Below, in pieces: positions 13,104-63,841 of a stretch of 64,000 bases of DNA. The DNA comes from Haliotis cracherodii. Its lineage: Eukaryota. Each line of letters starts with the position of its first letter. Positions within the stretch are counted from its first letter, which is position 1. The position numbers were made by a program, and so were the translations under genes. The stretch covers positions 1,674,001 to 1,738,000 of the forward strand of contig NW_027266264.1 of the NCBI RefSeq assembly GCF_022045235.1. Reading direction: 5' to 3'. The notes below the pieces were generated by a model. The model made no database searches. It was not told the DNA's origin and saw only the letters and a program-made list of their open reading frames with translations.

Positions 13104-13905
13104 GTGAACAATACCACTTAGGTTCTCGTCACCCAGGGGTGAACAATACCACTTTGGTCCTCGTCACCCGGAGGTGAACAATACCACTTAGGTCCTCGTC
13201 ACCCAGTGGTGAACAATACAACTTACGTCCTCGTCACCCTCTGGTGAACAATACCACTTAGGTCCTCGTCACCCTCTGGAGAACAATACCACTTAGGTCC
13301 TCGTCACCCTGTGGTGAACAATACCACTTAGGTCCTCGTCACCCAGAAGTGAACAATACCACTTAGGTCCTCGTCACCCAGAGGTGAACAATACCATTTA
13401 GGTCCTCGTCACCCTCTGGTGAACAATACCACTTAGGTCCTCGTCACCCTCTGGTGAACAATACTACTTAGGTCCTCGTCACCCATCGGTGAACAATACC
13501 ACTTAGGTCCTCGTTACCCTCTGCTGAACAATACCACTTAGGTCCTCGTCACCCTGTGGTGAACAATACCACTTAGGTCCTCATCACCCAGAGGTGAACA
13601 ATACCACCTAGGTTCTCGTCACCCTCTGGTGAACAATACCACTTAGGTCCTCGTCACCCGCTGGTAAACAATACCACTTAGGTCCTCATCATCCGGAGGT
13701 GAACAATACCACTTAGGTCCTCGTCACCCAGAGGTGAACAATACCACTTAGGTCCTCGTCACCCAGAGGTGAACAATACCACTTTGGTCCTCGTCACCCG
13801 GAGGTGAACATTACCACTTAGGTCCTCGTCACCCAGAGGTGAACAATACCACTTAGGTCCTCGTCACCCAGAGGTGAACAATACCACTTAGGTCCTCGTC
13901 ACCCT
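13104..13905. repeat. 35 bp minisatellite, about 23 copies
   Basis: Unit gtgaacaataccacttaggtcctcgtcacccNNNg. Confidence 0.95.
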
Positions 13906-16398: not shown

Positions 16399-17196
16399 AC
16401 AGATACGTACAGTTTATAGCGGTGCCACTACACTGGGGTGGTGACAGTCAGTATAGGGGAAGCCGACTCACAGATACGTACAGTGTACAGGGCTGACGCT
16501 ACACTGGGGTGGTGACAGTCAGTATAGAGGAAGTCGGCTCACAGATACGTACAGTGTACAGGGCTGAAGCTACACTGGGGTGGTGACAGTCAGTATAGAG
16601 GAAGTCGGCTCACAGATACGTACAGTTTACAGGGCTGACGCTACACTGGGATGGTGACAGTCAGTATAGAGGAAGTCGGCACAGATACGTACAGTGTACA
16701 GGGCTGACGCTACACTGGGATGGTGACAGTCAGTATAGAGGAAGTCGGCTCACAGATACGTACAGTTTACAGGGCTGACGCTACACTGGGGCGGTGACAG
16801 TCAGTATAGAGGACGTCGGCACAGATACATACAGTGTACAGGGCTGACGCTACACTGGGGTGGTGACAATCAGTATAGAGGACGTCGGCACAGGTACATG
16901 CAGTTTACAGGACTGACGCTACACTGGGGTGGTGACAGTCAGTATAGAGGAAGCCGGCTCACAGATACGTACAGTTTACAGGGCTGACGCTACACTGGGA
17001 TGGTGACAGTCAGTATAGAGGACGTCGGCACAGATACGTACAGTGTACAGGGCTGACGCTACACTGGGGTGGTGACAGTCAGTATAGAGGAAGCCAGCTC
17101 ACAGATACGTACAGTTTACAGGGCTGAAGCTACACTGGGGTGGTGACAGTCAGTATAGAGGAAGTCGGCTCACAGATACGTACACTGTACAGGGCT
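16399..17196. repeat. 69-71 bp tandem repeat, at least 11 copies, running into the assembly gap
   Basis: Unit acagatacgtacagtgtacagggctgacgctacactggggtggtgacagtcagtatagaggaagtcggctc. Confidence 0.93.
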
Positions 17197-29900: not shown

Positions 29901-32900
29901 TTAAACTGTGTTGTTGAACTGTGTTGTTGGACACTGTTGTTAGACTGTGGTGTTGGACTGTGTTGTTAGACTGCGGTGTTGGACTGTGTTGTTAGACTGT
30001 GGTGTTGGACAGTGTTGTTAGACTGTGGTGTTGGAGTCTGTTGTTGAAAAGTGTTTTTGATACAGTTGCTGGACGGTCAGTGTTGTTGTACACTGAGGCG
30101 AATTGCGATTATTAATAAGCTAGTAGATATCGCTATAGTATCTTTGAAGGAACGGTGTTGTAGGATATGAATACGACTTACAAAGCGATTATCTTGCGTT
30201 CAACTTCTATAACCGATGTATAGAGAAGATTGTCCTTGGTTCTACAACCGATGTGTGGGTTTAATTCCTTGTGGTCTACTCACCTATGTAGGTGTCCTCG
30301 GGACAGTTAGCTACATTGAAACTGGAACACATGTAAGCATCAGCCTGTAACACATGTAAACATCGGCCTTTAACACATGTAAGCATCGGTCTGTAACACA
30401 TGTAAGCATAAGCTTGTAACACATGTAAGCATCGGCCTGTAACACATGTAAGCATCGGTCTGTAACACATGTAAGCATCAGCTTGTAACACATGTCAGCA
30501 TCGGTCTGTAACACATGTAAGCATCAGCTTGTAACACATGTAAGCATCGGTCTGTAACACATGTAAGCATAAGCTTGTAACACATGTAAGCATCGGCCTG
30601 TAACACATGTAAGCATCGGCCTGTAACACATGTAAGCATCGGTTTGTAACACATGTAAGCATCTGCCTGTAACACATGTAAGCATCTGCCTGTAACACAT
30701 GTAAGCATCGGCCTGTTACACATGTAAGCATCGGCTTGTAACACATGTAAGCATCGGCTTTTAACACATGTAAGCATCGGTCTGTAACACATGTAAGCAT
30801 CGGTCCTTAACACATGTAAGCATCGGTCTGTAACACATGTAAGCATCGGCTTGTAACACATGTAAGCATCGGTCTGTAACACATGTAAGCATCAGCTTGT
30901 AACACATGTAAGCATCGGCCTGTAACACATGTAAGCATCGGCTTGTAACACATGTAAGCATCGGCCTGTAACACATGTAAGCATAAGCTTGTAACACATG
31001 TAAGCATCGGCCTGTAACACATGTAAGCATCAATCTGTTACACATGTAAGCATCGGTCTGTAACACATGTAAGCATCAATCTGTTACACATGTAAGCATC
31101 GGCCTGTAACACATGTAAGCATCGGTCTGTAACACATGTAAACATCAGCTTGTAACACATGTCAGCATCGGTCTGTAACACATGTTAGCATCAGCTTGTA
31201 ACACATGTAAGCATCTGCCTGTAATACATGTAAGCATCAGCTTGTAACACATGTAAGCATCGGTCTGTAACACATGTAAGCATAAGCTTGTAACACATGT
31301 AAGCATCGGCCTGTAACACATGTAAGCATCGGCCTGTAACACATGTAAGCATCGGTTTGTAACACATGTAAGCATCGGCCTTTAACACATGTAAGCATCT
31401 GCCTGTAACACATGTAAGCATCGGCCTGTTACACATGTAAGCATCGGCTTGTAACACATGTAAGCATCGGCTTTTAACACATGTAAGCATCGGTCTGTAA
31501 CACATGTAAGCATCGGTCCTTAACACATGTAAGCATCGGTCTGTAACACATGTAAGCATCGGCTTGTAACACATGTAAGCATCGGTCTGTAACACATGTA
31601 AGCATCAGCTTGTAACACATGTAAGCATCGGCCTGTAACACATGTAAGCATCGGCTTGTAACACATGTAAGCATCGGCCTGTAACACATGTAAGCATAAG
31701 CTTGTAACACATGTAAGCATCGGCCTGTAACACATGTAAGCATCAATCTGTTACACATGTAAGCATCGGTCTGTAACACATGTAAGCATCAATCTGTTAC
31801 ACATGTAAGCATCGGCCTGTAACACATGTAAGCATCGGTCTGTAACACATGTAAACATCAGCTTGTAACACATGTCAGCATCGGTCTGTAACACATGTTA
31901 GCATCAGCTTGTAACACATGTAAGCATCTGCCTGTAATACATGTAAGCATCTGCCTGTAACACATGTGCCTGTAACACATGTAAGCATCAGCTTGTAACA
32001 CATGTAAGCATCTGCCTGTAATACATGTAAGCATCAGCTTGTAACACATGTAAGTGGTGAGTGAGTGGTGAGTGACGAGAGATGGCTGACAGTCACCAGC
32101 ACAAGTACATTACCTCCAGTTAATGTGAAGACACGCAACGTTCAGGGATCACATCCCCTACTCAATAAACATCTGGCTCTTGAGAATTTTGGAGTATCAA
32201 GAACTAGAACTGACCCCTGTTTCATTTCATATTTAATTTCGTTACTGATTGTGATACTTTCAAGTAATGTTTTTATTTTGATCAACCCAGTGCAACCAAA
32301 ATGTGTAGCATGTATATTATGTTTGTTCTGACACTGTTTCCTTGGCTGGAAGACCCAGGACCATGTTGTTGACTGCACTGAAATAAACATTCAAATCCCA
32401 TCTGCCTTTGTCCTCAACTCAAACGTTTTATACACAAGATGTAATTCTATACTTAATATACCCATAAGATTATTATTGAATTTCAATATCCAGGTCTATT
32501 TGTTCAAAACTGAACAGCTGTGGCAAGTCATAGTGAATGCACGGCAATACACCACTGAACAGCTTTGTCCAACCATTACTTTACAACCGTCTTAGTGGTA
32601 GGAACGCTTTGTGAAGCTACCTCTCACGACATCAATTGCATCGTGTAGACTAGTCGCCCGTATACAACACATACAACCCCTTTGACTGAAAGGATTCATC
32701 AGGGCGTGGCGCAGCTTGCCACGTCACACAATATCCCTGTTATAATGCTATCTTCATAAAAGAAAAACTATACACTCTTCAAAACTAGAAACGCACGGGT
32801 AGTATGTTATTTACGGAACCTGACTACAAAAAAAAATCCGGTATATAAATTGGATGTATCTTATTAGAAAATGTTGGTGGCCTGACAGTCGAGAAACGGT

Positions 32901-48200: not shown

Positions 48201-51200
48201 AGACTCGTCTATTGATCACGACAAACATCAGGTGTCAGTAGGTGAGTGATTGTATTTTAACGCCGCAGTTAGCACTATTTCAACTATTTAACGGCAAACT
48301 GTTAATAATCGAGTGTTCGCCAAATCACCCAGTGGTTGACATCAAGAGCCTCATTGGACGTCACTAGGGTACGATGCCACAACAACCGGGTCACACATCG
48401 AAACTATCCGTCCCGCATTTCTACGGACATTTAGAACAAGCATCGGGCACTGTGACCCATTGCGCCCCGGAACCCCGAACAGAAGAATTTGGTACAAGTG
48501 TTCAGAAATAGTTATTGTGCCAAGCCTGAGATATGAGCAAGTAATTCAGTTATGAAGAAACACATACCCTTTGTTGGTGACCGAGTTGCGACCTCTTGAG
48601 TCGTAGGAACATCGGGCAACCTATAGAGTACATAGAGCATGTGATCAACAACATAAGCAGATGACCAACAACACAATCAGGTGACCAACAACACAAGCAG
48701 GTGACCAACAACACAAGCAGGTGACCAACAACACAAGCAGATGACCAACAACACAAGCAGGTGACCAACAAAACAATCAGGTGACCAACAACACAAGCAG
48801 GTGACCAACAAAACAAGCAGGTGACCAACAACATAAGCAGGTGACCAACAACACAAGCAGGTGACCAACAACATAAGCAGGTGACCAACAACACAAGCAG
48901 ATGACCAACAACACAAGCAGGTGACCAACAACATAAGCAGGTGACCAACAACACAAGCAGATGACCAACAACATAAGCAGGTGGCCAACAACACAAGCAG
49001 GTGACCAACAACACAAGCAGGTGACCAACAACACAAGCAGATGACCAACAACACAAGCAGGTGACCAACAACACAAGCAGGTGACCAACAACACAAGCAG
49101 GTGACCAACAACACAAGCAGGTGACCAAAAACACAAGCAGATGACCAACAACACAAGCAGGTGACCAACAACACAAGCAGGTGACCAACAACACAAGCAG
49201 GTGACCAACAACACAAGCAGGTGACCAACAACACAAGCAGGTGACCAACAACACAAGCAGGTGACCAACAACATAAGCAGATGACCAACAACACAAGCAG
49301 GTGACCAACAACACAAGCGACTGTCAATCGAGTCTTTGTTTGATGCGATAGAAGCAATACAGATTACAGGAAACAGGCTCGTTGCAGTAATTAAAAATAT
49401 ATAATATTGAGACAAGTAGCTTACATGAAGTTGTGTGTCATTATATTAATAAAGTGTGTCTTACCAGTTCGTCGCCAGACTTTACAATATAACTGCCATT
49501 GACAGGATAAAATGCCTAAAAGAAAACAACTGAAAGGTAATAAAAAGATCATAAATTCTGACTATTACAAATCAGTAAACAAGTATTGCCTGAATACCAA
49601 ACAACACTGAACATATCCAACAATCCACGAAGTAGGTGTCTCCATGACCGTGGGATGTCCTACCTGGGGCCACTGTGGGTTGCCTCTGCCGACCGCATGC
49701 CAGGTGTTGTTGAACATGTACCCAGTGATAACCTTTCCTGGAAAAGAGATGTATTGAAGGTTAATCACTTGATTAGGAAACTACATGTGCTGACAGAGCT
49801 AACAGCAGTGTCATTGGCTGGCCATACGCGGTCAGATTCCACACGTATAGCAGAGCACAGGTGTCAGTGACGACATCGGGTGTCAGTGACGACACATCGT
49901 GATCAGCGAAAGTGGCATCGTGGTTGCTAGGCGACCATCCAGTTCAGGGGTGCATTTTGGACAGAATCGTGTAAAAAGTACAACTACAACCGCTAGTACT
50001 GCCGTTGATATTACTAGTTGAACTCCCCAGGGAGTTGAGAATGATAACTGGAATGCAAACGGATCAACTGGTCGGGGGACAAAGAAAGCGCACTTGAGCA
50101 GATACTAGTACCTGGATACGTGCGGTATATAAATTTATAACATAATAATATTAGTGTACAAGTTCAGTCATGTCTATTACAACCGCTGATACATTCACTT
50201 ATTATGTCAAAGTAGACAAAGTAACCTGTGTAGGACACAAATGACTACAAGCAATGCGTGGTATTAGATAACCGGTCAGTGGTATTAACAGCGCCAGGAT
50301 CATCTTCAACCTACCTAGACCGTGAGAGTGAGTTCTGTAGGCGAAGGGGTAGATCGGTTGTGGTTCCTGGTAGGTGCAACTCACGTCGACGTGGGCGTCT
50401 GTGGAGGAGAGGTATCCTGTCACGTTTAACAGTAGAACCAGAGTTTCCTTTTCACCACTGACTGACTGATATAGAAGATTTAACGTGCGCATTCCGACTG
50501 CAGCGTATTTCGCACACGGTTTTCACCACTGAGGTACACGTGTACTTATATGATATTAGTAGAGGAAAACTTAGTAACGAGTGAAAAAACGTTTTTTTAC
50601 TACTGGAAGTACGTGCACCGCAAACCCGAACAGCTACAGGAAAACACAATAATTCAATCACCAGACTGGTTTCAAAATCGGAAAGAGTGTGTGAAAGATG
50701 CTGACAATATGTTTCAGCCAGACAATGATGATACAGCCAAAAGAATAATCATCAAGAAGATCAGAACATTCCCCTTATGTGTCGACGAACTAGATGCGCA
50801 CCACACGCGCAAGCATGCTGAGGAACTGTTGTCGCTCTGTTACTGCTTGGAAGTGACTAAACTCATTTGTCAACTTTCCCGAGAATTGTGTTTTGGCTGT
50901 ATGTTTGAAGCAGATGGTGAACAAACCCATACCTCTCGCTTGACGGAAGAGGAACAGGTGGACAAATACTTTACAATGTCAATGAATGATCTCAAGGATG
51001 TACGTGTGTTAGATCGATGGATGAGCATTTTAGCTGATGACACATCATTGAAAGATTCCTTTAATTTTGTACCTTATCAGTGTAAAGATTATCGCAACTC
51101 GTATTTCAAAACCCCAGAATGGTTTGAACAATTGAAGCGACGTGCTGTAAAAATGTTAATATTTGAAAAACATTACTCCTCGTAGTTGAAAATCCTTGAC

Positions 51201-54200: not shown

Positions 54201-57200
54201 AAATAATGGTTGTGGGGATGAGGCTGTAAGAAACGACGTTGCTCGCCACGTGTTACCGGGATGCGAGCATCGAGCAATCGCTTTACGATGGCTTTAGTAC
54301 CCTTGATTTGCTCGCCATTCATGCTGCGAATATCGCGCAAGGTTTCTTGGTAATCATTAAACGAAAGAAGTTGTCTGAAAAACGTGTAATGCCTCAGGAC
54401 GTATCTCGCCATGTCTGAATCGTACGGTGTCACACTCGACAATGAAACGTACTCGTGAGACTTTGATCTTAAATAATCATAAAAACCGTATAACCCAACT
54501 TACATAGAACCATATACATACATCCATGTCATATATAGAACTGAAACACAATAGACATTTTCTCTGTTTTTATTGACTCGTCTACCACTCTACAGGAAGA
54601 AAGATCGTGTTATATGGTAGAACACGTGAAACAGTACTTGAAATAGTCACAGATAAAGCGAGTCACATACGCATCATTGCGTGTTTTGTCTGTACAAAAC
54701 ATCTGTACGATATCTCGTAAACTAGCACTATTTCTACATTTCTGTAACGCGTAATATAAACAATAGAATCCACAAGCACTCGAACTAGATTGCTGTAAAT
54801 CAGACGTGTTATATCGATAACTGCGAGAATGTTTCTTGATAAAATATTTAAATTCACGATGATAGTAACTTGGTTTCTGTCCATAACTATCAAAAAACTC
54901 GCCGACTCCACTCCCGTCAAAGTAAAAGTCAACCCAATGTTGACCCTCGCCACGTGCTAGGTCCGTGTTAGCCACACATCCCCATGGTTTTCCACTGAAA
55001 GGTACGGTGATGTTAGCTAATGTATCTCTCGCGTACACACCCACCACGTGTGTACGGAGGCTGGGGTGTGTTCGGATGGCACACTGTAACTGTCGTTTGT
55101 ACATTGTCTACTTTAGAAACACGTTTCGGCTTTGGTCGATTTCGATGAGGGCCGGAAACTTGGCCAGGGCGATGACGTTGAAGGTATGGGCGAGGGCTTG
55201 AGCAAACTGGACTTCTAGTCGTAGATTACCCGACTTGACCAGATTCAGATATTCCCCTCTGTTGACTTGGATGTCTTGCAGGTTAAATACGTACAAGGCA
55301 TGACCTACGGAAAATTCCGTGCGGTCCAAGTTCAAACCTTTGTCTTTACGCCATTCGTTATTCCAGTCGTACAGACCGGCGTAAGCCTCGACGTCGTTCG
55401 ACTCTAACGGTCGTCCAGGTACACTGGTACCGTTCAAGTACAGTCCCATGCTTTTAACGATGTCGCCTTGGAAACAGAAGGGATTGGCCGTGTACGATCC
55501 GTTCACCCCATCGGACCTCACCAAGGCGACCACGAGTCGACTGGGGACTTCGTCTTGAAATATGGCATCCCAGTTAAAACTCAGACTGGACGAGGCGACC
55601 GAGGCCATCTTGACCATGGATCGTTCGTACGGGTACAGGGCGTTGGCTTTTTCGAACTGTTTGTTGTGGGCCACGATGAGAGCGTCGTTGATCCTCAGTT
55701 TGCATACTTTCAGGTACACGTCTTGTAGTTCAATGTTATATTCCTTGCTACTCTCTCCCGACATCAAGACGAAGGATGTGTTGGATCTGAATAGCTTGAT
55801 GCCGACATCCACGCCGTTCACCAGATGACGGTCGAAACCGAAAACGTCTTCCATAAGGGGCCCTGTTAGGGTGATCGACTTGCTTCCGGCGATGAAGCTT
55901 CCGCGGTTGATGAGCCCATCGTTTCCACCGCCGTAAGGATCAGGGTCATCAAAATCAACCACGGTTTCTCCCGAATCTTTGTAATACAGCTGACTGGTCA
56001 GCTGACTGGACTTGGCATCGGCGCCGTAGTCGAGGACGGTTTCCATGAGAGCTTTGTAAGGATAACTGGCATTGCTGGAGCTAACTTGTTGTCCCTGTAG
56101 GAACACGCTCACCTGATTCCACAAGCTGTGCAAAGTGAGGTTGACGGGCCCTACTTTTTCTTTATCGGCTAAGGGCGTTTTGTCGGTGTGAGTGACTTTG
56201 AGTTTGACGTGAAGTCGGGTCTTGCTCAAGTCGATGTAGTCTTTCCCTCCATTCACGGTCTCTTTCAGAAATGAATGCGATGTTCCTTCTGCACACTTTA
56301 TATACACTTCGATTTCTGACGATAACGGGTAAGTACCATGGCTGGTGAAAATAATATTTGGGTCCGTCTCTCAGATTGAGTCGTCTCAATAAAGGTAGAT
56401 AATTCTCACCCACGTGTGAACTGTCGCACAGATTACACAACACGTCAATGGTGGTATTATTGATATCTTTCAACTCGACTCGTCCTAGTTTCATTTCTAA
56501 CAGAGCCACCATCCACATGCCCTCCAGTTTCAAATGTTGAGACAGTTTCACCCAGAAACGGTAAGGCGTGTTGTCCGGATAATACTCCCGGGAGTCTGCA
56601 CTGTTAAACACGATGTATTTATCCATTTTACTTGTCCTTCACTTCGCTTGCTTCTACCTAGGAATCGAAACTCGATGGCCAACCTGCCCACCTGACTAAA
56701 TAGTACAATTTTTTCTCGTTGTCTTTCTTTTTCTTTAACACTTTTTCGATATCCCATGTGTCATCTAAATCTTTATCGACACGCTGTAATTCTTCTCCGT
56801 AAAAGCGTCCCTTTAAGAACTGGTCGTGAAAATCTTTCAGTGTGTATAAAGGAATACCCTGTCGTCGATAACGGGCTGCTACTTTAAATAACTCTTCCGT
56901 CCATCTCAAGTTGTGTTCCTAAGCAAAACGTTTTCTCCAATAACTGATTCTCACGATATCCCCTATTTTATATTGAAAGGAACGGAACTTGTGTGACATG
57001 TATGCTGATGGTTTCATGTATAAATGTCCCCATACTTTGACTTCATTTCGTTCATTCACATCTGTAGGGGCCCACTCGCCTAAGCTTCTATGTACTGTGT
57101 GATTGTAATTATACACTAAATCGGGTAGCACGTCCACATAGCGCTCGGTGTTCTTGTGTGTCAGATACCTCGCTATGAGTGACCTCAACGTTCGAATGAC

Positions 57201-60200
57201 TCTCTCGGCGTAATTCGCTTTAATGTCTTCGTTCTGATTGACAAACAATTTGATCGACTGACGCTCTATAAAATCCTTGAATATCCCTTTAAATTCCGTT
57301 CCTTTGCCCACTCCGATCTTTTGAGGTGCACGTCCGTGCGATAGGATGGCTTTAAAGCCGTCGACGATGGACTCGGGTTTCTTGTTTTTCAAAGGGGCTA
57401 CCCACAGATAGCGAGACAATATGTCAATGGCTATCAGCACGTAACGTACACCACCGTTCACTTCAGCATAGCGACTCATGTCCATCAGGTCCACATCCCA
57501 CTGTTCATCTACTCGGTTGACGAGTACTTTGAGGCGTTGAAATCTTCGATTCACCGACTTATGAATTGTGTAAGCATTGTGCTTGCTCAACTCGGCTTTT
57601 ACCTCAGGCACACCCAACGTTTTACCACGTCTTTTTAAACTTTGTTGAAATTTGGAGGCACCACAATACGCACCCGGGGACTTGGGATTAAAGTAATAGC
57701 TCTCTAACTCGTTCTGTCTAGACGACGACGGTGTTACATCTGACTTACTAGACATGTTTCTGTGTCGTGTGGTAAATTCAAATGTGACCACCCATCTGCG
57801 CATATTCTCTTTATATACACAGCAAAGTTAACAAACACATGCATTATTCAATACTATCATGCTTTATTATATAGAATAAGTCATGTGAATTCAACTACCA
57901 TACGAATAGCTATTAACACAAGTCAAGGATTTTCAACTACGAGGAGTAATGTTTTTCAAATATTAACATTTTTACAGCACGTCGCTTCAATTGTTCAAAC
58001 CATTCTGGGGTTTTGAAATACGAGTTGCGGTAATCTTTACACTGATAAGGTACAAAATTAAAGGAATCTTTCAATGATGTGTCATCAGCTAAAATGCTCA
58101 TCCATCGATCTAACACACGTACATCCTTGAGATCATTCATTGACATTGTAAAGTATTTGTCCACCTGTTCCTCTTCCGTCAAGCGAGAGGTATGGGTTTG
58201 TTCACCATCTGCTTCAAACATACAGCCAAAACACAATTCTCGGGAAAGTTGACAAATGAGTTAAGTCACTTCCAAGCAGTAACAGAGCGACAACAGTTCC
58301 TCAGCATGCTTGCGCGTGTGGTGCGCATCTAGTTCGTCGACACATAAGGGGAATGTTCTGATCTTCTTGATGATTATTCTTTTGGCTGTATCATCATTGT
58401 CTGGCTGAAACATATTGTCAGCATCTTTCACACATTCTTTCCGATTTTGAAACCAGTCTGGTGATTGAATTATTGTGTTTTCCTGTAGCTGTTCGGGTTT
58501 GCGGTGCACGGACTTCCAGGAGTAAAAAAACGTTTTTTCACTCGTCATTTTTACAGAATGTTACTTTCTCACGACGCCTGATGTAGATGGATGCGACACT
58601 GAAGACGGTCTGTGCTATGAATGATTAGTTATGCGAGGACTAACGTTTTATATACCATCTAATTTTGGAAAATGATATCATAGACTAATTAAGACATGTT
58701 CGTTGCGTACAACTGTCACTAAAAAACCAGCAGACGACTGTCCAAAAGCAGACGAACGTTTTTCTTATTTGCATCTAACCCGTTGAAGACGGGGGGACCG
58801 CTAGCAGACGACGAACGGGAAACCGCTAGCAGACGACGAGCACCTGTGCCAACACCTTCACTCCGCTTGTATCAATACCATCCTTTGTCCCCATTGTTAC
58901 CACATCTTTAGGGAGGTTTCAACGGTCTAACGCACATTCAAGTACCCCCCTCCATTGTCTACTCGCTCGCGCTTCATCGCTTTCCTTTGAAATTGGGAGG
59001 TAAATGCTATTGTTGTCATGAACTACTAAGTTTTCCTCTACTGATATTCCATTGGGCGGAGAACGGGACATCCGCGCTGGCCGTAACAGCCGACTAGGTG
59101 TAATCGGATGGTTACAAGGTGTACCTCGTAGGGTACGGGGTCGTGTGACCAACTGGATCGGTGGTCAGACTCAGTGGTCAGGCTCAGTGGTCAGGCTCAG
59201 TGGTAAGGCTCAGTGGTCAGGCTCAGTGATCAGGCTCAGTGATTTCGTTAATGGCGTGTCATCGTGGTTCGTTGTTTACAATATCGATCACTGAATTGTC
59301 AGGTCCAGACTCCAATGTTTACAAGCAGCCGTCATATGGCTAGAATAGCCGAGTGTGGCGTTTGACAAAAAACATACAAACGTATGTCATGTATCCCTAT
59401 CGGTCTGTTGGGTTCAGCTGCATTTATATACTTGATATTGCTTCATACGCCTCAGAAGTTATTGGATGAAGGTTAAAACATTCAACGCATCAGAAATGCT
59501 TTCTAAAGCCTTTTGGTAAACATGTGGAGGACATTTCCAAATATGATGCATCAGTGATAAAAGTTATGTCCGACGCTATTCCCTATTTTGACTTGTACCA
59601 TATGTTCCCGTATTTCTCCATGTGAACAATTGGCTTGCCTTTGCATGTGTTTGTGACAGTTGTCACCTGGGGCCAAGATACGTACACCTGGTATCATCAC
59701 TATCATGTACGGAATCGTACAGTCGACTCTGCTTTGGGCAAATATTTCTGTTGAATAGGGAAAGAGTTCCGTCCCTTTTATTAGTGGTTATATTACTCAC
59801 TGCGGCGCACAATACCATTCACTCACTCACTTTCGTTATGTACCATTATGAAGTGATGGAAATAGCTCAACCATGGCCGCCGCTAAATACGTAGGTCTGG
59901 ACAAGACAATAAGAGGTTAAAACTATGAACAACGACCTACGTCGTTGGGGGCGATGATGACCGACATTGACCATCTCACCGAGCCTGACCACCCCTAATA
60001 TAGTCATATCTCACAGAGCCTGGCCACCCATACCGAGCCTGACAACCCATACCGAGCCTGACCACCCGTACCGAGCCTGACCACCCATACCGAGCCTGAC
60101 CACCCATACCGAGCCTGACCACCCATAACATAGCCACATCTCACCGAGCCTGACCACCCATAACATAGTCACATCTTACAGAGCCTGGCCACCCATACCG

Positions 60201-63200
60201 AGCCTGACCACCCATACCGAGCCTGACCACCCATACCATAGCCACATCTCACAGAGCCTGGCCACCCATACCGAGCCTGACCACCCATAACATAGCCACA
60301 TCTCACAGAGCCTGGCCACCCATACCGAGCCTGACCACCCATAACATAGCCACATCTCACAGAGCCTGGCCACCCATACCGAGCCTGACCACCCATACCA
60401 TAGCCACATCTCACAGATCCTGGCCACCCATACCGAGCCTGACCACCCATACCGAGCCTGACCACCCATACCATAGCCACATCTCACAGAGCCTGGCCAT
60501 CCATACCGAGCCTGACCACCCATACCGAGCCTGACCACCCATACCATAGCCACATCTCACAGAGCCTGGCCACCCATACCGAGCCTGACCACCCATAACA
60601 TAGCCACATCTCACAGAGCCTGGCCACCCATACCGAGCCTGACCACCCATACCATAGCCACATCTCACAGAGCCTGGCCATCCATACCGAGCCTGACCAC
60701 CCATACCGAGCCTGACCACCCATAACATAGCCACATCTCACAGAGCCTGGCCACCCATACCGAGCCTGACCACCCATACCATAGCCACATCTCACAGAGC
60801 CTGGCCACCCATACCGAGCCTGACCACCCATACCGAGCCTGACCACCCATACCATAGCCACATCTCACAGAGCCTGGCCATCCATACCGAGCCTGACCAC
60901 CCATACCGAGCCTGACCACCCATACCATAGCCACATCTCACAGAGCCTGGCCACCCATACCGAGCCTGACCACCCATAACATAGCCACATCTGACAGAGC
61001 CTGGCCACCAATACCGAGCCTGACCACCCATACCGAGCCTGATCACCCATACCGAGCCTGACCAGCCATAACATAGTCACATCTCACCGAGCCTGGCCAC
61101 CCATACCATAGCCACATCTCACAGAGCCTGGCCACCCATACCGAGCCTGACCACCCATACCGAGCCTGACCACCCATAACATAGCCACATCTCACCGAGC
61201 CTGGCCACCCATACCGAGCCTGACCACCCATAACATAGCCACATCTCACAGAGCCTGACCACCCATAACATAGTCACATCTCACAGAGCCTGGCCACCCA
61301 TACCGAGCCTGACCACCCATAACATAGCCACATCTCACAGAACCTGACCACCCATAACATAGTCACATCTCACAGAGCCTGGCCACCCATACCATAGCCA
61401 CATCTCACAGAGCCTGGCCACCTATACCGAGCCTGACCACCCATAACATAGCCACATCTCACCGAGCCTGACCACCCATAACATAGCCACATCTCACCGA
61501 GCCTGACCGCCCATAACATAGCCACATCTCACAGAGCCTGACCACCCATAACATAGCCACATCTCACAGAGCCTGACCACCCATACCATAGCCACATCTC
61601 ACAGAGCCTGACCACCCATAACATAGCCACATCTCACCGAGCCTGACCACCCGTAACATAGCCACATCTCACCGAGCCTGACCACCCGTAACATAGCCAT
61701 GACAGGGCTTTATCAGCAGTGGTTGACTGTATTTTACTATGTAAAGGAGAAACGCTAACACACAGAGAGTGCGTTGCGTTTTCATATAAATAACTCCCTG
61801 TATATTTTTAGAACTTACACATCTATCACCAGGTGTTCTACATACTTACTGGGTGTATTCGGCGGTATGGCAAACCGTATGCTCTCCAATAAATATATTC
61901 CTGCTGCATATTTCTGTCTGCAACGACACATATAGGCGTACTGAAGTAACTGCATGCATCAAAAAACGTAAATCAAAAAGCTCTGGCTTACTGTCTGTGT
62001 GAAGTCCTGAAAGTCGTGGTTTCGTATTGGTTTTATCATATACATCACTCAATACCACTGGAATTCAACAGATTGGAGTGTAAATACACCCCACACCAAC
62101 TTAAGATACTGCATTCAATTATTTCGTTTAATGTACAAGTCTAGATACCAACAAAATGTTTTGCCCATTTGTTTGGATTTCTTCAGGTGGTCTAGAATTA
62201 ATATCCTTAACAAAACATATGATAACCAGGGGAATATTGTATTGTATGGCGTCTGTGAAGGAAACGACTATTCTGAAGTTATGGACTATATGTTATTTGT
62301 AGCTATATTTAGTATATACCAGTCTAAAGTAACTGAAACGTAGCTGTCATTATAACATATTCCTTAAAGCCGTGTTATCTTACGCTACAGATGACTTAAG
62401 TATATTAAGTCACCCATTGGTTCCAAACTAAACGTTCTCGATGCCAATTAATAAATAGTATTATTGGAAACAATATCCCCGGATCCGCCTGTCCACGTCG
62501 TATTATACCACGGTTGTAAAAACGTAGAATCATGGTGTAATAAAGATACTAAAAATGATTATATGTATAGTTGATATATGTTCTGCTCTTCGCAAGTATT
62601 ATTCACAAAATACCGAGAAGGTTGACACTGTCCTTACCGTTCTGGTGTTATAAAAATGCGGATTCCGGAGAAGTCTTTCGGTGCAGATTCTGAAATCAGA
62701 ATTACATTAACATTACAGAAGAGAAATATGCTGTGGCGTGCTGCCCATTCCCAGTGAAGACTCTGCCAGATGGACAGGACTATCTGTGCACGGGAGCAGG
62801 CACAGAAAGGTAGGTCTTGTATGACTTGAGAGGACATACGCGTTCTAGGTCCCGTCGGCAATATTTCCAGCCAAGGTGTACCTGGAGTACTTCACACAAA
62901 CATAAGACTGTCAACTGACAGGAGCCTAGTCCTCCTCCTCCTGGTATGACAGTAACACTGGTTTATGGGGAGATGTACACTAAGAGGGGTTCTTGCCCAG
63001 GAGTGTACCTCAAAGGTGTGACAATACCTACCCTATACATCAGAGTTGTGACAATACCTACCCTATACATCAGAGGTGTGATAATACCTACCCTATACAT
63101 CAGAGGTGGTGCAATACCTACCCTATACATCAGAGCTGTGACAATAACTACCCTATACATCAGAGGTGTGGCAATACCTACCCTATACATCAGAGGTGTG

Positions 63201-63841
63201 GCAATACCTACCCTATACATCAGAGCTGTGACAATACCTACCCTATACATCAGAGGTGTGGCAATACCTACCCTATACATCAGAGCTGTGACAATACCTA
63301 CCCTATACACCAGAGGTGTGGCAATACCGACCCTATACATCAGAGGTGGTGCAATACCTACCATTAAATGCATGCTGGAAGTGAGTCTGTAACACAATAG
63401 TTTTGATGGCGGATCCTCTCCCGACTCTAAAGCCAACGTCTGTAAAACACATAAATATTTAAGTAGCATTTACAAGCTGGTTATGTAACTGTAACAAGAT
63501 GGATGATCAACGTCTTTACAGAGTTGAAGTGATACGTGGATGCAGGTTCGTTACCTTATTTGGACAATAGCATATTTTGTTATGCCAGTTTGAAGTGACT
63601 GGTGCTAAATTATTGCCAGGCACGTGTTCTGCAAAGAAAAATTGTGCCAAAATAAACTTGAAACTTTGACACAACTTTACTATATCCACTGAGATTGTGA
63701 ACTGAGTAATGTAGACATGATTGTTTTGTATAAACTGTAAGTAACTGGGTACCGTCTGGTAGGGGTGTGGGTGGGACACCTTGTGCACAGGCAAACAAGA
63801 ACACCTCTGACGCGCCTTGCTGACAGACACCAGGACATTTC
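38922..63841 (-). CDS. PAM: PAM-like protein (PHM + degenerate PAL + TM + cytosolic tail); 5' exons lie beyond the window
   Basis: Exons: 63841-63753, 63439-63362, 62689-62638, 61917-61850, 50398-50315, 49737-49664, 49515-49465, 48620-48568, 47880-47492, 46561-46414, 45928-45821, 45482-45410, 44869-44730, 43805-43708, 42270-42076, 41568-41453, 39836-39722, 39579-39454, 39034-38922; phases compatible. PHM motifs LQTHF, FAYRTHSHGLG, GNPQWPQ, DEMCQFYMMYY. PAL/NHL motifs LGQVVGVA..IFHRG, FYLPHG, HFCQPSDVAV, NPHDV. Confidence 0.9.
39175..39248. repeat. Compound microsatellite (CT)n(CGAT)n
   Basis: Direct reading. Confidence 0.95.
39790..40710 (-). repeat. 27 bp tandem repeat derived from PAL exon sequence (HDVTVDSxD), with duplicated acceptors
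   Basis: Plus-strand unit gagtcaactgtcacatcgtggtccatg. Acceptor-like gttacacag copies near 39838, 39977 and 40703. Confidence 0.9.
40782..41275. mobile_element. MITE with long imperfect TIRs
   Basis: cccgaggcaggggagttaa...ccttgccgaactgg is mirrored by ccagttcggcaagg...ttatctctcttgcctcggga. A second copy lies at about 44022-44500. Confidence 0.75.
42806..43133. repeat. 36 bp tandem repeat x9
   Basis: Unit cacattaatgtatggggtgtacatgtacacatgtgg. Confidence 0.93.
43545..43766 (-). repeat. 73 bp repeat x3 made of a PAL exon end plus donor
   Basis: ttcctccgtcgtc starts at 43571, 43644, 43717. Minus-strand unit cacgttcctga..gacggaggaaagtgttgct|gtgagtat. Confidence 0.88.
44022..44500. mobile_element. 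MITE, same family as 40782-41275
   Basis: Shared agttaactgactgtaaaa..tgccgaact..ggaatttcaggg and interior; TIR-like ends. Confidence 0.72.
47575..47752 (-). repeat. In-frame 30 bp coding repeat x6 in the PHM-PAL linker
   Basis: (D/E/N)VPLS(Q/P)AP(G/A)L repeats within exon 47880-47492. Confidence 0.88.
47994..48102. mobile_element. Short palindromic MITE
   Basis: ggggcccgttccacaaagcgatcttagcgct / agcgctgagatcgctctatgggacgggacccc. Confidence 0.7.
48641..49318. repeat. 20 bp minisatellite, about 34 copies
   Basis: Unit gtgaccaacaacacaagcag. Confidence 0.95.
50550..51185 (+). CDS. Polinton-associated hypothetical protein (211 aa), open copy
   Basis: Open ORF with a CxxC motif (LCFGC). The mirror copy at 58548-57937 has an internal stop. 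Confidence 0.65.
   Translation: MILVEENLVTSEKTFFYYWKYVHRKPEQLQENTIIQSPDWFQNRKECVKDADNMFQPDNDDTAKRIIIKKIRTFPLCVDELDAHHTRKHAEELLSLCYCLEVTKLICQLSRELCFGCMFEADGEQTHTSRLTEEEQVDKYFTMSMNDLKDVRVLDRWMSILADDTSLKDSFNFVPYQCKDYRNSYFKTPEWFEQLKRRAVKMLIFEKHYSS
51319..53313 (+). CDS. Fusion ORF: integrase + chromodomain + minor capsid (partial) + major capsid (N-terminal half)
   Basis: 664 aa open frame. DDE triad WDVDL / SMDKGTEF / YAERVIRT; chromo-like IEKVLKKK..YLVRWAGWP; penton-like HVGENYLPLLR..PWYLPV; capsid DYIDLSKTRL..NASYPYKA. Confidence 0.85.
   Translation: MRRWVVTFEFTTRHRNMSSRSDVTPSSSRQNELESYYFNPKSPDAYYGASKFQQSLKRRGKTLGVSEVKAELSKHNAYTIHKSVNRRFQRLKVLVNRVDEQWDVDLMDMSRYAKVNGGVRYVLIAIDILSRYLWVAPLKNKKPESIVDGFKAILSHGRAPQKISMDKGTEFKGTFKDFIERQSIKLFVNQNEDIKANYAERVIRTLRSLIARYLTHKNTERYVDVLPTVHRSLGEWAPADVNERNEVKVWGHLYMKPSAYMSHKFRSFQYKIGDIVRISYWRKRFAKEHNLRWTEELFKVAARYRRQGIPLYTLKDFHDQFLKGPFYGEELQRVDKDLDDTWDIEKVLKKKKDNEKKLYYLVRWAGWPLEMKLGRVELKDINNTTIDVLCNLCDSSHVGENYLPLLRRLNLRDGPKYYFHQPWYLPVIVRDTSEIEVYIKCAEGTSHSFLKETVNGGKDYIDLSKTRLHVKLKVTHTDKTPLADKEKAGPVNLTLHSLWNQVSVFLQGQQVSSSNASYPYKALMETLLDYGADAKSSQLTSQLYYKDSGETVVDFNDPDPYGGGNDGLINRGSFIAGSKSITLTGPLMEDVFGFDRHLVNGVDVGINLFRSNTSFVLMSGESSKEYNIELQDVYLKVCKLRINDALKKHVCSKQSEIWCSWYVG
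53432..53950 (-). CDS. A32/FtsK-like DNA packaging ATPase, C-terminally truncated
   Basis: Walker A GGTCSGKT, Walker B ILVLDDLM, then HH..I..LLQ..Y.KG..RT.S.N and NPR motifs. Confidence 0.88.
   Translation of the reverse strand: MSEKCLLPFITTTTLSVIGGTCSGKTYWTKRLLENASRVFHKPPDLIVYRYGVWQDLYADVQQSIANIQFHESLPSKSQLRLWSDQSSKNMILVLDDLMMDICTSKLMLNVYTTLSHHLGITVINLLQSVYPKGPCSRTVSVNTHMFVLMSNPRSAHEYKILASQIFPGQSK
54005..54442 (-). CDS. Basic hypothetical viral protein (145 aa)
   Basis: Arg-rich open ORF, co-oriented between protease and ATPase; no recognised family. Confidence 0.6.
   Translation of the reverse strand: MSSVTPYDSDMARYVLRHYTFFRQLLSFNDYQETLRDIRSMNGEQIKGTKAIVKRLLDARIPVTRGEQRRFLQPHPHNHYLRMLRRIARPDTTKRSIKRTLLNHTPLIQFYIFEYEHVRQVRDKAQRALQRLARRQQRPLVPRAA
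54610..55104 (-). CDS. Adenain-like capsid maturation cysteine protease
   Basis: ANTD...GQHWV, EFFDSYG, LQ...SSACGFYC (His-Asp-Gln-Cys). Confidence 0.92.
   Translation of the reverse strand: MYKRQLQCAIRTHPSLRTHVVGVYARDTLANITVPFSGKPWGCVANTDLARGEGQHWVDFYFDGSGVGEFFDSYGQKPSYYHREFKYFIKKHSRSYRYNTSDLQQSSSSACGFYCLYYALQKCRNSASLRDIVQMFCTDKTRNDAYVTRFICDYFKYCFTCSTI
55108..56307 (-). CDS. Polinton major capsid protein (double jelly-roll), N-terminus replaced by the minor-capsid C-terminus
   Basis: DYIDL, LHSLWNQV, YPYKA, QLYYKD, NGVD..IKL.R, NPFCF, C-terminal GNLRLEVQFA..IEIDQSRNV. Confidence 0.9.
   Translation of the reverse strand: MYIKCAEGTSHSFLKETVNGGKDYIDLSKTRLHVKLKVTHTDKTPLADKEKVGPVNLTLHSLWNQVSVFLQGQQVSSSNASYPYKALMETVLDYGADAKSSQLTSQLYYKDSGETVVDFDDPDPYGGGNDGLINRGSFIAGSKSITLTGPLMEDVFGFDRHLVNGVDVGIKLFRSNTSFVLMSGESSKEYNIELQDVYLKVCKLRINDALIVAHNKQFEKANALYPYERSMVKMASVASSSLSFNWDAIFQDEVPSRLVVALVRSDGVNGSYTANPFCFQGDIVKSMGLYLNGTSVPGRPLESNDVEAYAGLYDWNNEWRKDKGLNLDRTEFSVGHALYVFNLQDIQVNRGEYLNLVKSGNLRLEVQFAQALAHTFNVIALAKFPALIEIDQSRNVFLK
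56250..56626 (-). pseudogene. Minor capsid (penton-like) protein, frameshifted by an 11 bp deletion
   Basis: SADSREYYPDNTPYRFWVKL...L.G.W.VAL.E and VG...PLLR motifs; lacks gagagacacgt, which is present in the + arm. Confidence 0.8.
56658..57803 (-). pseudogene. Polinton integrase-chromodomain with a nonsense mutation and loss of the second catalytic Asp
   Basis: Mirror of the integrase part of ORF 51319-53313. TAG at 56919-56921 in place of AAG; GVGKGTEF in place of SMDKGTEF. Confidence 0.88.
57937..58548 (-). pseudogene. Interrupted copy of the 211 aa viral hypothetical protein
   Basis: TAA at 58261-58263 where the + arm has AAA. Confidence 0.7.
59975..61700. repeat. Complex SINE-derived minisatellite
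   Basis: Mixed modules ccgagcctgaccacccata and acatagccacatctcacagagcctg; the core matches the SINE family B segment gagcctgaccaccc. Confidence 0.9.
63010..63362 (-). repeat. 30 bp tandem repeat x12 starting at a PAM splice donor
   Basis: Minus-strand unit g|gtaggtattgcaccacctctgatgtatag abuts exon 63439-63362. Confidence 0.9.

Follow-up and report, generated by a model that had tools for sequence, protein, structure and literature searches.

In the genome of the abalone Haliotis cracherodii (assembly GCF_022045235.1), a derivative of a Polinton/Maverick element lies folded back on itself within an intron of the PAM gene. The stretch analysed, referred to below as the window, comprises 64,000 nucleotides of contig NW_027266264.1 (positions 1,674,001–1,738,000 of the forward strand), and the element spans positions 50558–59042 of it (8,485 bp), with identical ends of 19 bp, a 6-bp target duplication and two long inverted arms. 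A modest preference is given to an origin in which the polymerase half of the element was replaced by its inverted integrase–capsid half after insertion, through repair of a break by copying from the opposite terminal repeat. The element is probably a neutral, eroding relic.

Comparison of the window with itself gave two inverted blocks, 50577–52423 against 58545–56675 and 52423–53255 against 56500–55679, and also a shorter pair at the termini. The full alignment of the arms covers 2,687 bases, 26 of them mismatched (99.03% identity). The inverted arms had been proposed in a sequence-only reading of the window; they are real and were placed correctly to within 5 bp, with the outer 5 bp then assigned to the element being target-site DNA. 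The 6-bp duplication which that reading had put forward as a check was found as GATATT, directly at both element ends (chance at a fixed place, p about 4e-4), and apart from it the flanks differ on the two sides. The arms are lopsided, with the left lacking 478, 24 and 175 bp and the right lacking 11 bp; the 24- and 175-bp deletions are confined to the left arm, while a deletion of 580 bp is common to both. The joints of the arm deletions show 0–3 nt of microhomology. The differences between the arms are evenly spread (Kolmogorov–Smirnov p 0.98), the longest tract free of them is 284 bp, and no hypermutation pattern was found in the arm comparison.

The element is confirmed as a Polinton/Maverick derivative by its genes and its ends. 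On the minus strand the right arm carries, from its end inward, a 203-codon open reading frame (ORF), an integrase, a small ORF, a capsid gene, a protease, a basic ORF and an ATPase (Table 1). The integrase, which also has a chromodomain, matched the Pfam rve family with E values of 1.1e-6 and 1.6e-4 (both under the curated cut-off) and is 83–84% identical to the integrase of one relative. The capsid piece is without its N-terminal 54 residues; its predicted structure (confidence score pLDDT 89.9) matched the capsids of Sputnik, mavirus and Paramecium bursaria chlorella virus 1 with E of about 1e-12, and its nearest named homologues are from Haliotis, the best of 46 matches standing at 94%. 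The protease matched pS273R of African swine fever virus (E 5e-7) with the His and Cys motifs aligned, and the ATPase matched Pox_A32 (E 0.0039, under the cut-off) with a visible Walker A motif. There was no Pfam match for the small ORF 3' of the integrase, a putative minor capsid gene named from its place in the gene order. A tblastn search with three PolB frames of relatives gave no match in the window, so that the element can only be classed as a derivative and not as an autonomous member of the Polintons. The Polinton identity suggested earlier is borne out by the integrase, double-jelly-roll capsid, protease, ATPase and 6-bp duplication, and the gene features and duplication are among the Maverick hallmarks listed in passages of PMC8097293.

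Polintons and Mavericks, including the adintoviruses, are described in parts of PMC8097293 and PMC8502044 as having the same rve integrase, double-jelly-roll capsid, adenain-type protease and A32-like ATPase, as well as terminal repeats beginning with AGT and a 6-bp target duplication. The abalone element differs from them in lacking the polymerase half, in having the left 5.6 kb at both ends and in its broken genes. Its end motif is AGTAGA instead of (AGT)2, and its ATPase lies in line with the capsid genes, whereas that of the vertebrate Mavericks belongs to the polymerase module. It should also be noted that a frame of 672 codons lies open across three deletion joints of the left half; its chance, roughly estimated after the fact, is 1–2%, its substitutions look neutral, and it is probably a coincidence.

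The arms were formerly longer than they now appear. Homology of the right arm to its relatives reaches 53433, which gives that arm 5,610 bp, and between this point and the left arm lies a patchwork of 177 bp which forms the true centre. This centre holds three scraps of 44–45 bp each (53257–53301, 53301–53344 and 53350–53393), all of them parent sequence from beyond the ATPase in the orientation of the left arm, together with a 16-bp duplication and a filler of 23 nt, for which no template of 11 nt or more was found in the 11 sequences searched. The strand switch stands at 53432/53433, and the left half formerly ran forward for ~10 kb before it, as measured on the relative on contig C24 minus its insertion. 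From the reach of the right-arm homology and the origin of the centre scraps, the 2.4 kb between the present arms is read as right arm whose counterpart on the left side was removed by a deletion of 3.6 kb, and not as an original loop. The earlier description of these 2,423 bp as a unique spacer was thus correct for the gene content but not for the loop. Among the candidates scored in the same genome (14 of 14), none had the centre joints at a second locus. Amplification as a unit, of the kind seen in miniature inverted-repeat or foldback-type elements, was not found, the centre joints being present at one locus only.

It is extremely improbable that the structure is an assembly artefact, in which two haplotypes or a chimeric long read were joined head to head. 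Long palindromes are known to cause assembly errors. Against this, the flanks differ around a direct 6-bp duplication, each arm has mutations of its own, and the centre contains parent sequence that is missing from the right arm. In addition, a contig of 157 bp (53306–53462) was present with 0 differences in all three same-species contig runs (X1, X2 and X4, from two studies, one run possibly being the source of the assembly). It bridges the 53344/53350 joint with 39 and 113 letters and the strand switch with 127 and 30, the latter being one below the threshold of 31. Contig depth, a rough measure, was higher over a capsid patch shared by the arms than over the centre, by factors of 2.2 (X1), 3.2 (X2) and 2.3 (X4). 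The mis-join that had been named as a possible refutation is largely refuted by the centre contig, the differing flanks and the arm-private mutations.

The same runs also bear on the deletions. At the points of the 175-bp and 580-bp deletions (52423 and 52682), contigs of X1 start and stop to the letter, whereas both points are crossed by one contig from species B. The joint at 53301, which is specific to this locus, is spanned in X2 and X4 by a contig that continues upstream into ordinary family sequence, not into capsid; it probably represents an allele that retains the 3.6 kb, its arms measuring about 5.3 kb, an appearance which graph cleaning could mimic. No contig in X1, X2 or X4 bridges the joint of the 3.6-kb deletion itself (53255/53257), where the listed contigs fill the depth of the bin; this was not counted as absence, as assembler cleaning may remove such contigs. 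The species B run X7 likewise had no contig over 53345–53432, from which absence cannot be concluded. From X18, raw reads amounting to about 1/100 of the run gave no information, with 130 of 130 fitting only in part, and element-like contigs of X20 were rejected as this copy, since their 8–15 differences and low depth assign them to other copies.

Both arms derive from one parent, as they share the 580-bp deletion between the small ORF and the capsid gene, relative to the related elements, and a divergent patch, about 230 bp of the capsid gene, that is alike in the two. Relatives were taken from a search of the same genome (113 matches from 40 scored of 1,540 candidates), and several are 13–17 kb long with a PolB frame. 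The one on contig C24 is 33 kb long, with a 13-kb retrotransposon inside, the same terminus and ordinary repeats. In the assembly, the 580-bp deletion was found at no other locus (13 of 13 candidates scored) and the patch was found nowhere else at 99–100% (16 of 16 candidates scored). The patch (55740–56040 and its left-arm mirror) is about 14% divergent from all near relatives with many synonymous changes, which points to recombination between Polinton subfamilies before insertion. The retrotransposon of the C24 element, the closest relative, lies in the ATPase gene (C24:2922507–2935631) and has an envelope-like ORF of 787 codons, identified by the look of the ORF only.

Substitutions were polarised at 1,334 coding sites that are covered by both arms and at which three relatives agree, with the patch excluded; the 203-codon ORF, sites of disagreement among the three relatives and the copies on C5, C11 and C45 were omitted. 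This left 22 substitutions that both arms carry, 18 of them non-synonymous and 4 synonymous, with 7 private to the left arm and 11 to the right. The shared set fits the absence of selection (expected synonymous share 0.22–0.28, p 0.35–1.0). It departs both from the baseline of the family, 40:43 (Fisher p 0.007), and from the patch, which has 15:22 at 288 sites (p 0.003). An initial shared count of 41:27 was discarded, having been inflated by the recombinant patch. About 1.65% of neutral change (range 1.0–2.5) accumulated before the arms split, and about 0.67% per arm (95% range 0.40–1.06) after it. The shared deletion and the neutral-looking shared changes indicate that the parent was already decaying before it folded. 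Across 1,884 sites of capsid, protease and ATPase, the window copy has 38 private changes, compared with 10, 12, 12 and 19 in four relatives, an excess that would make it an older resident or a product of a dead lineage. The terminal repeats of these four relatives have diverged by 0.16–0.94% per arm.

Fold-backs with this terminus recur in the genome. A search of the assembly for the 19-nt element end gave 15 occurrences (control 0), with four two-ended elements and seven single ends, and two of the three other two-ended copies have over-long inverted arms. One of these (C20:455183–471702) has 4,084 bp of aligned arms that are 1.67% apart, a centre of 642 bp and a 6-bp duplication, GACGTC; the other (C2:57999882–58012537) has arms that align over 1,648 bp, differ by 3.0% and contain integrase scraps, again with a 6-bp duplication, which is also present in the C24 element. 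The foreign sequence in the arms of the C20 copy is found single and unfolded at three other loci, and its fold-back joint is unique, with no second site in the assembly. From these comparisons it appears that dead derivatives of the family move in trans and that fold-backs arise repeatedly, with no fold-back found at two sites.

Aside from these results, several features of the other copies were observed. The arms of the C20 copy are gene-less, about 4.6 kb long, and one of them contains a long interspersed nuclear element. The same foreign non-coding sequence is present in non-autonomous derivatives on C2 (57999882–58012537), C67 (50922885–50931976) and C78 (54076348–54081842), and another 3-kb element with extended inverted arms lies at C67:50944819–50947908. 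The single ends C12:6052952–6057630, C12:53388307–53393925, C56:34177959–34183961 and C9:2805982 share their outer 324–362 bp and run into a different Polinton-like sequence, which includes an ATPase remnant and inner inverted repeats.

The favoured origin, repair in place, begins with a family member that integrated with a 6-bp target duplication. This single copy lost 580 bp and gathered about 1.65% of neutral change, the marks of which are present in both arms, presumably while resident in the host. It is suspected that a break in the polymerase half was then resected back to the right terminal repeat. By strand invasion of the left repeat, synthesis would have proceeded inward over 5.6 kb as far as the ATPase, the copied strand being end-joined to the other broken end. 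The arms have since diverged by about 0.67% each, and the left arm and centre have lost blocks of which the largest is 3.6 kb. This order is favoured by the target duplication, the marks found at one locus only and the 22 shared neutral changes that predate the split. It is also favoured by the 16-bp duplication, 23-nt filler and 0–3 nt microhomology, as in host end-joining, and by the two other over-long-armed copies, each with its own joint. The same mechanism has been proposed for the extension of terminal inverted repeats (TIRs) in Galileo, in passages of PMC3573991. Of the two origins named in the sequence-only reading, a post-insertion fold-back is thus the one favoured by the data, and a copy-back defective genome is retained at lower confidence as the main rival.

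A number of observations weigh against repair in place, and several of them would suit a copy-back genome instead. In that explanation, which is considered unlikely, a decayed donor would have been replicated with the aid of a helper; starting from the left end, the polymerase would have advanced ~10 kb, switched onto its own nascent strand at the ATPase and returned to the end where it began. A helper integrase would have inserted the ~15-kb product, which would then have eroded. The topology matches: the complementary ends come from one terminus, with a far break point and a nearer rejoin point, and the parent span of about 10 kb forward and 5.6 kb back is near the 13–17 kb of the relatives. 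The arm divergence of 0.67% lies within the terminal-repeat ages of the family, so that the element could also have formed and integrated in a burst, when helper functions were present. Gene-poor derivatives with one foreign sequence at four loci show that movement in trans is open to dead copies. A contig from species B matches the flank around a missing 71 bp, its shorter side being 38 letters (50520–50557), and since it ends at the left target copy it is inferred to be an empty site. The flank in species B differs at 9 of 329 bases (2.7%, range 1.3–5.1, exon included), which is tight for an insertion that gathered 2.0–2.3% in place. The insertion cannot be dated, since the left terminal repeat has been reduced to 19 bp, and the joint first formed may have differed from the centre seen today. 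In the unpaired part of the right arm, the changes number 25:15, more synonymous than neutral, so that part of the apparent age is lineage difference. On the other hand, no donor or sibling with the shared marks was found in the assembly, a dead donor is required for the 22 neutral shared changes and the 580-bp deletion, the joint contains filler instead of being a clean switch, and the fold-back joint of the C20 copy is also single. As to propagation by a helper, the timing is compatible; no sibling locus was found, and the decay shared by the arms is neutral.

A further explanation, regarded as less likely again, holds that folding and insertion date from the same time and that gene conversion between the arms kept them alike, spreading the shared changes later. 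Close inverted repeats in palindromes are subject to gene conversion, and the even spread of the arm differences fits a steady state as well as a single event. Conversion has also been proposed for long TIRs in passages of PMC3573991. Against this, no difference-free tract extends beyond 284 bp, and four indels have remained private to one arm, yet the 580-bp deletion would need to have been converted.

Since PAM is transcribed on the minus strand and both arms precede the 3' splice site, a long duplex is predicted in its pre-mRNA. The arms pair over 2,550 nt in perfect runs of 30 or more, and a slice of 400 nt was computed at −788 kcal/mol when paired, against about −100 for each single strand. 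Each PAM pre-mRNA is thus predicted to be able to form a duplex of 2.7 kb, which, by analogy with intronic inverted repeats, would likely be edited by ADAR and destroyed with the intron. In the sequence-only reading this hairpin had been offered as a heritable antiviral small-RNA source, which is not supported: DICER2 and siAGO are reported to be lost, the arms are neutral and eroding, and similar structures are found elsewhere in the genome.

That the host keeps the hairpin as a small-RNA source against the Polinton family, whatever its origin and by piRNA-like (PIWI-interacting RNA-like) rather than Dicer-2 processing, is considered very improbable. Both arms are necessarily in the pre-mRNA, the perfect pairing is extensive, the left arm is antisense to the family mRNAs, and the centre was found in contigs of three individuals from two studies. 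The production of piRNAs requires no hairpin, however, and the divergence of the arms is neutral, with one of them being deleted. A weak exon-level search found a Dicer dimerisation-domain match in one of seven candidates only. According to parts of PMC11114477, DICER2 and siAGO were lost in Mollusca and the oyster has no signature of endogenous small interfering RNAs (siRNAs), which makes the siRNA idea weak. In a gastropod, passages of PMC6085071 report only 26–30-nt virus-derived RNAs, as well as piRNA-like RNAs from a putative endogenous virus copy. The locus is a possible piRNA source; it would need no hairpin for this, and no selection was seen in the arms. A broader scheme, which we regard as quite improbable, would have the family repeatedly shedding copy-back genomes that integrate, with this gene-bearing copy as an intermediate toward gene-less palindromic elements with Maverick ends. 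Wild alleles with arms of ~5.3 kb (integrase, both capsids, protease and ATPase) would in that scheme make viral double-stranded RNA in every PAM pre-mRNA and feed a Dicer-2-independent piRNA-like defence.

Several known systems resemble parts of this element. Copy-back defective viral genomes and the inverted-duplication defectives of adenovirus have complementary ends from one terminus and have lost the polymerase half. They are free and replicating, whereas the abalone element is integrated, single-copy and was in decay before its duplication. Intronic inverted repeats are edited by ADAR, and hairpin RNAs of Drosophila are cut by Dicer-2; the abalone hairpin is like them in being a long near-perfect duplex of a host transcript, here predicted from sequence. 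The pathway used in Drosophila is, however, reported as absent in molluscs (PMC11114477, in part). Galileo, a P-type transposon, has non-autonomous copies in which sequence adjacent to one TIR is duplicated in inverted orientation beside the other, for which break repair from the opposite TIR was proposed. As given in passages of PMC3573991, its TIRs reach 1.26 kb with a few hundred bases recruited, whereas the recruited sequence in the abalone amounts to 5.3 kb and includes whole viral genes, in a virus-like element of a self-replicating kind.

The replication and decay of Polintons have hardly been observed directly. The joints of the abalone element can be read, its events can be ordered in time, and the same genome holds at least two more copies with over-long arms; together these offer a way to test copy-back defectives against palindromes made by host repair. 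A gene-bearing fold-back connects autonomous Polintons with palindromic elements that have Maverick ends but no genes, and an intronic hairpin of 2.7 kb (perhaps 5 kb) that is 99% paired, in the gene of an essential enzyme, is a natural test of how molluscs handle long endogenous double-stranded RNA. Should the element be no more than a decaying relic, it still illustrates TIR extension of exceptional size. The literature searched yielded no account of a gene-bearing fold-back Polinton, with supplements, subscription papers and Repbase reports lying outside the search. No such case is described in the passages of PMC6431247 and PMC8502044, and Polinton-driven inversions of a host gene are described in part of PMC11414722.

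Table 1. Features of the fold-back element and its host intron, in window coordinates.
Feature	Position	Strand	Basis
Target-site duplication GATATT, left copy	50552..50557		
Target-site duplication GATATT, right copy	59043..59048		
Whole fold-back Polinton derivative, 8,485 bp, without DNA polymerase gene	50558..59042		
Left terminal repeat remnant, 19 bp; following 478 bp deleted	50558..50576	+	
Left arm: 203-codon ORF, integrase with chromodomain, minor and major capsid pieces	50577..53255	+	
Open frame of 672 codons across three deletion joints, made of fused pieces of integrase, minor capsid and major capsid (probably coincidental)	51295..53313	+	
True centre, 177-bp patchwork	53256..53432	+	Comparison with relatives
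Right arm, now partnerless part (formerly described as spacer)	53433..55678	-	
Right arm, paired part	55679..59042	-	
A32-like packaging ATPase, residues 1–172 of 221, ending at strand switch	53435..53950	-	
Basic 134-codon family ORF	54005..54412	-	
Adenovirus-type cysteine protease, 164 aa	54610..55104	-	
Double-jelly-roll major capsid protein, residues 55–435; N-terminus removed by 580-bp deletion	55108..56253	-	
Small ORF at minor-capsid position, frameshifted and truncated	56251..56626	-	
rve integrase with chromodomain, interrupted by stop	56631..57791	-	
203-codon family ORF, interrupted by stop	57937..58548	-	
Terminal repeat sequence common to other subfamily ends, up to 362 bp	58681..59042	-	
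PAM exon with H-x-H copper motif, downstream of host intron, 84 bp	50315..50398	-	
Host intron, 11,451 nt; 2,960 without element	50399..61849	-	
PAM (PHM domain) exon upstream of host intron, 68 bp	61850..61917	-	

The placement of the element between two PAM exons, as first read from the sequence, holds. Both exons have AG/GT ends and join in phase 1 with a continuous PHM frame, and the element ends 159 nt from the 3' splice site of the intron. The 84-bp exon matched only PAM/PHM chains (13 of 13 matches, weak, best E 0.031). The 68-bp exon alone had no match among solved structures; it lies in register, 24 residues upstream of the stretch matched by the other. A search with the Cu2_monoox_C profile gave no signal at the PAM locus, where the exons are short. 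In run X20, which is RNA by guess only, the 84-bp exon is internal to a contig of 1,043 nt with 0 differences, which fits normal splicing in an animal that may or may not carry the element. No RNA data set was listed as containing the stretch, which is uninformative about its expression.

Minisatellite arrays were observed in and around the PAM introns at 13104–13904, 16399–17196, 30322–32054, 39786–40693, 48496–49445, 59972–61699 and 62946–63422, and one of them, of 1.7 kb, shares the intron of the element. A very high-copy short repeat (50457–50519) lies between the element and the 3' splice site and is absent from one species B contig. A 30-bp repeat follows the PHM 'DEMC' motif in an open frame on the minus strand (47541–47779) and is possibly a repetitive linker between PHM and PAL. 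Most of the 32 Cu2_monoox_C matches in the genome lie on contig C5, which suggests a large expansion of copper monooxygenase genes there.

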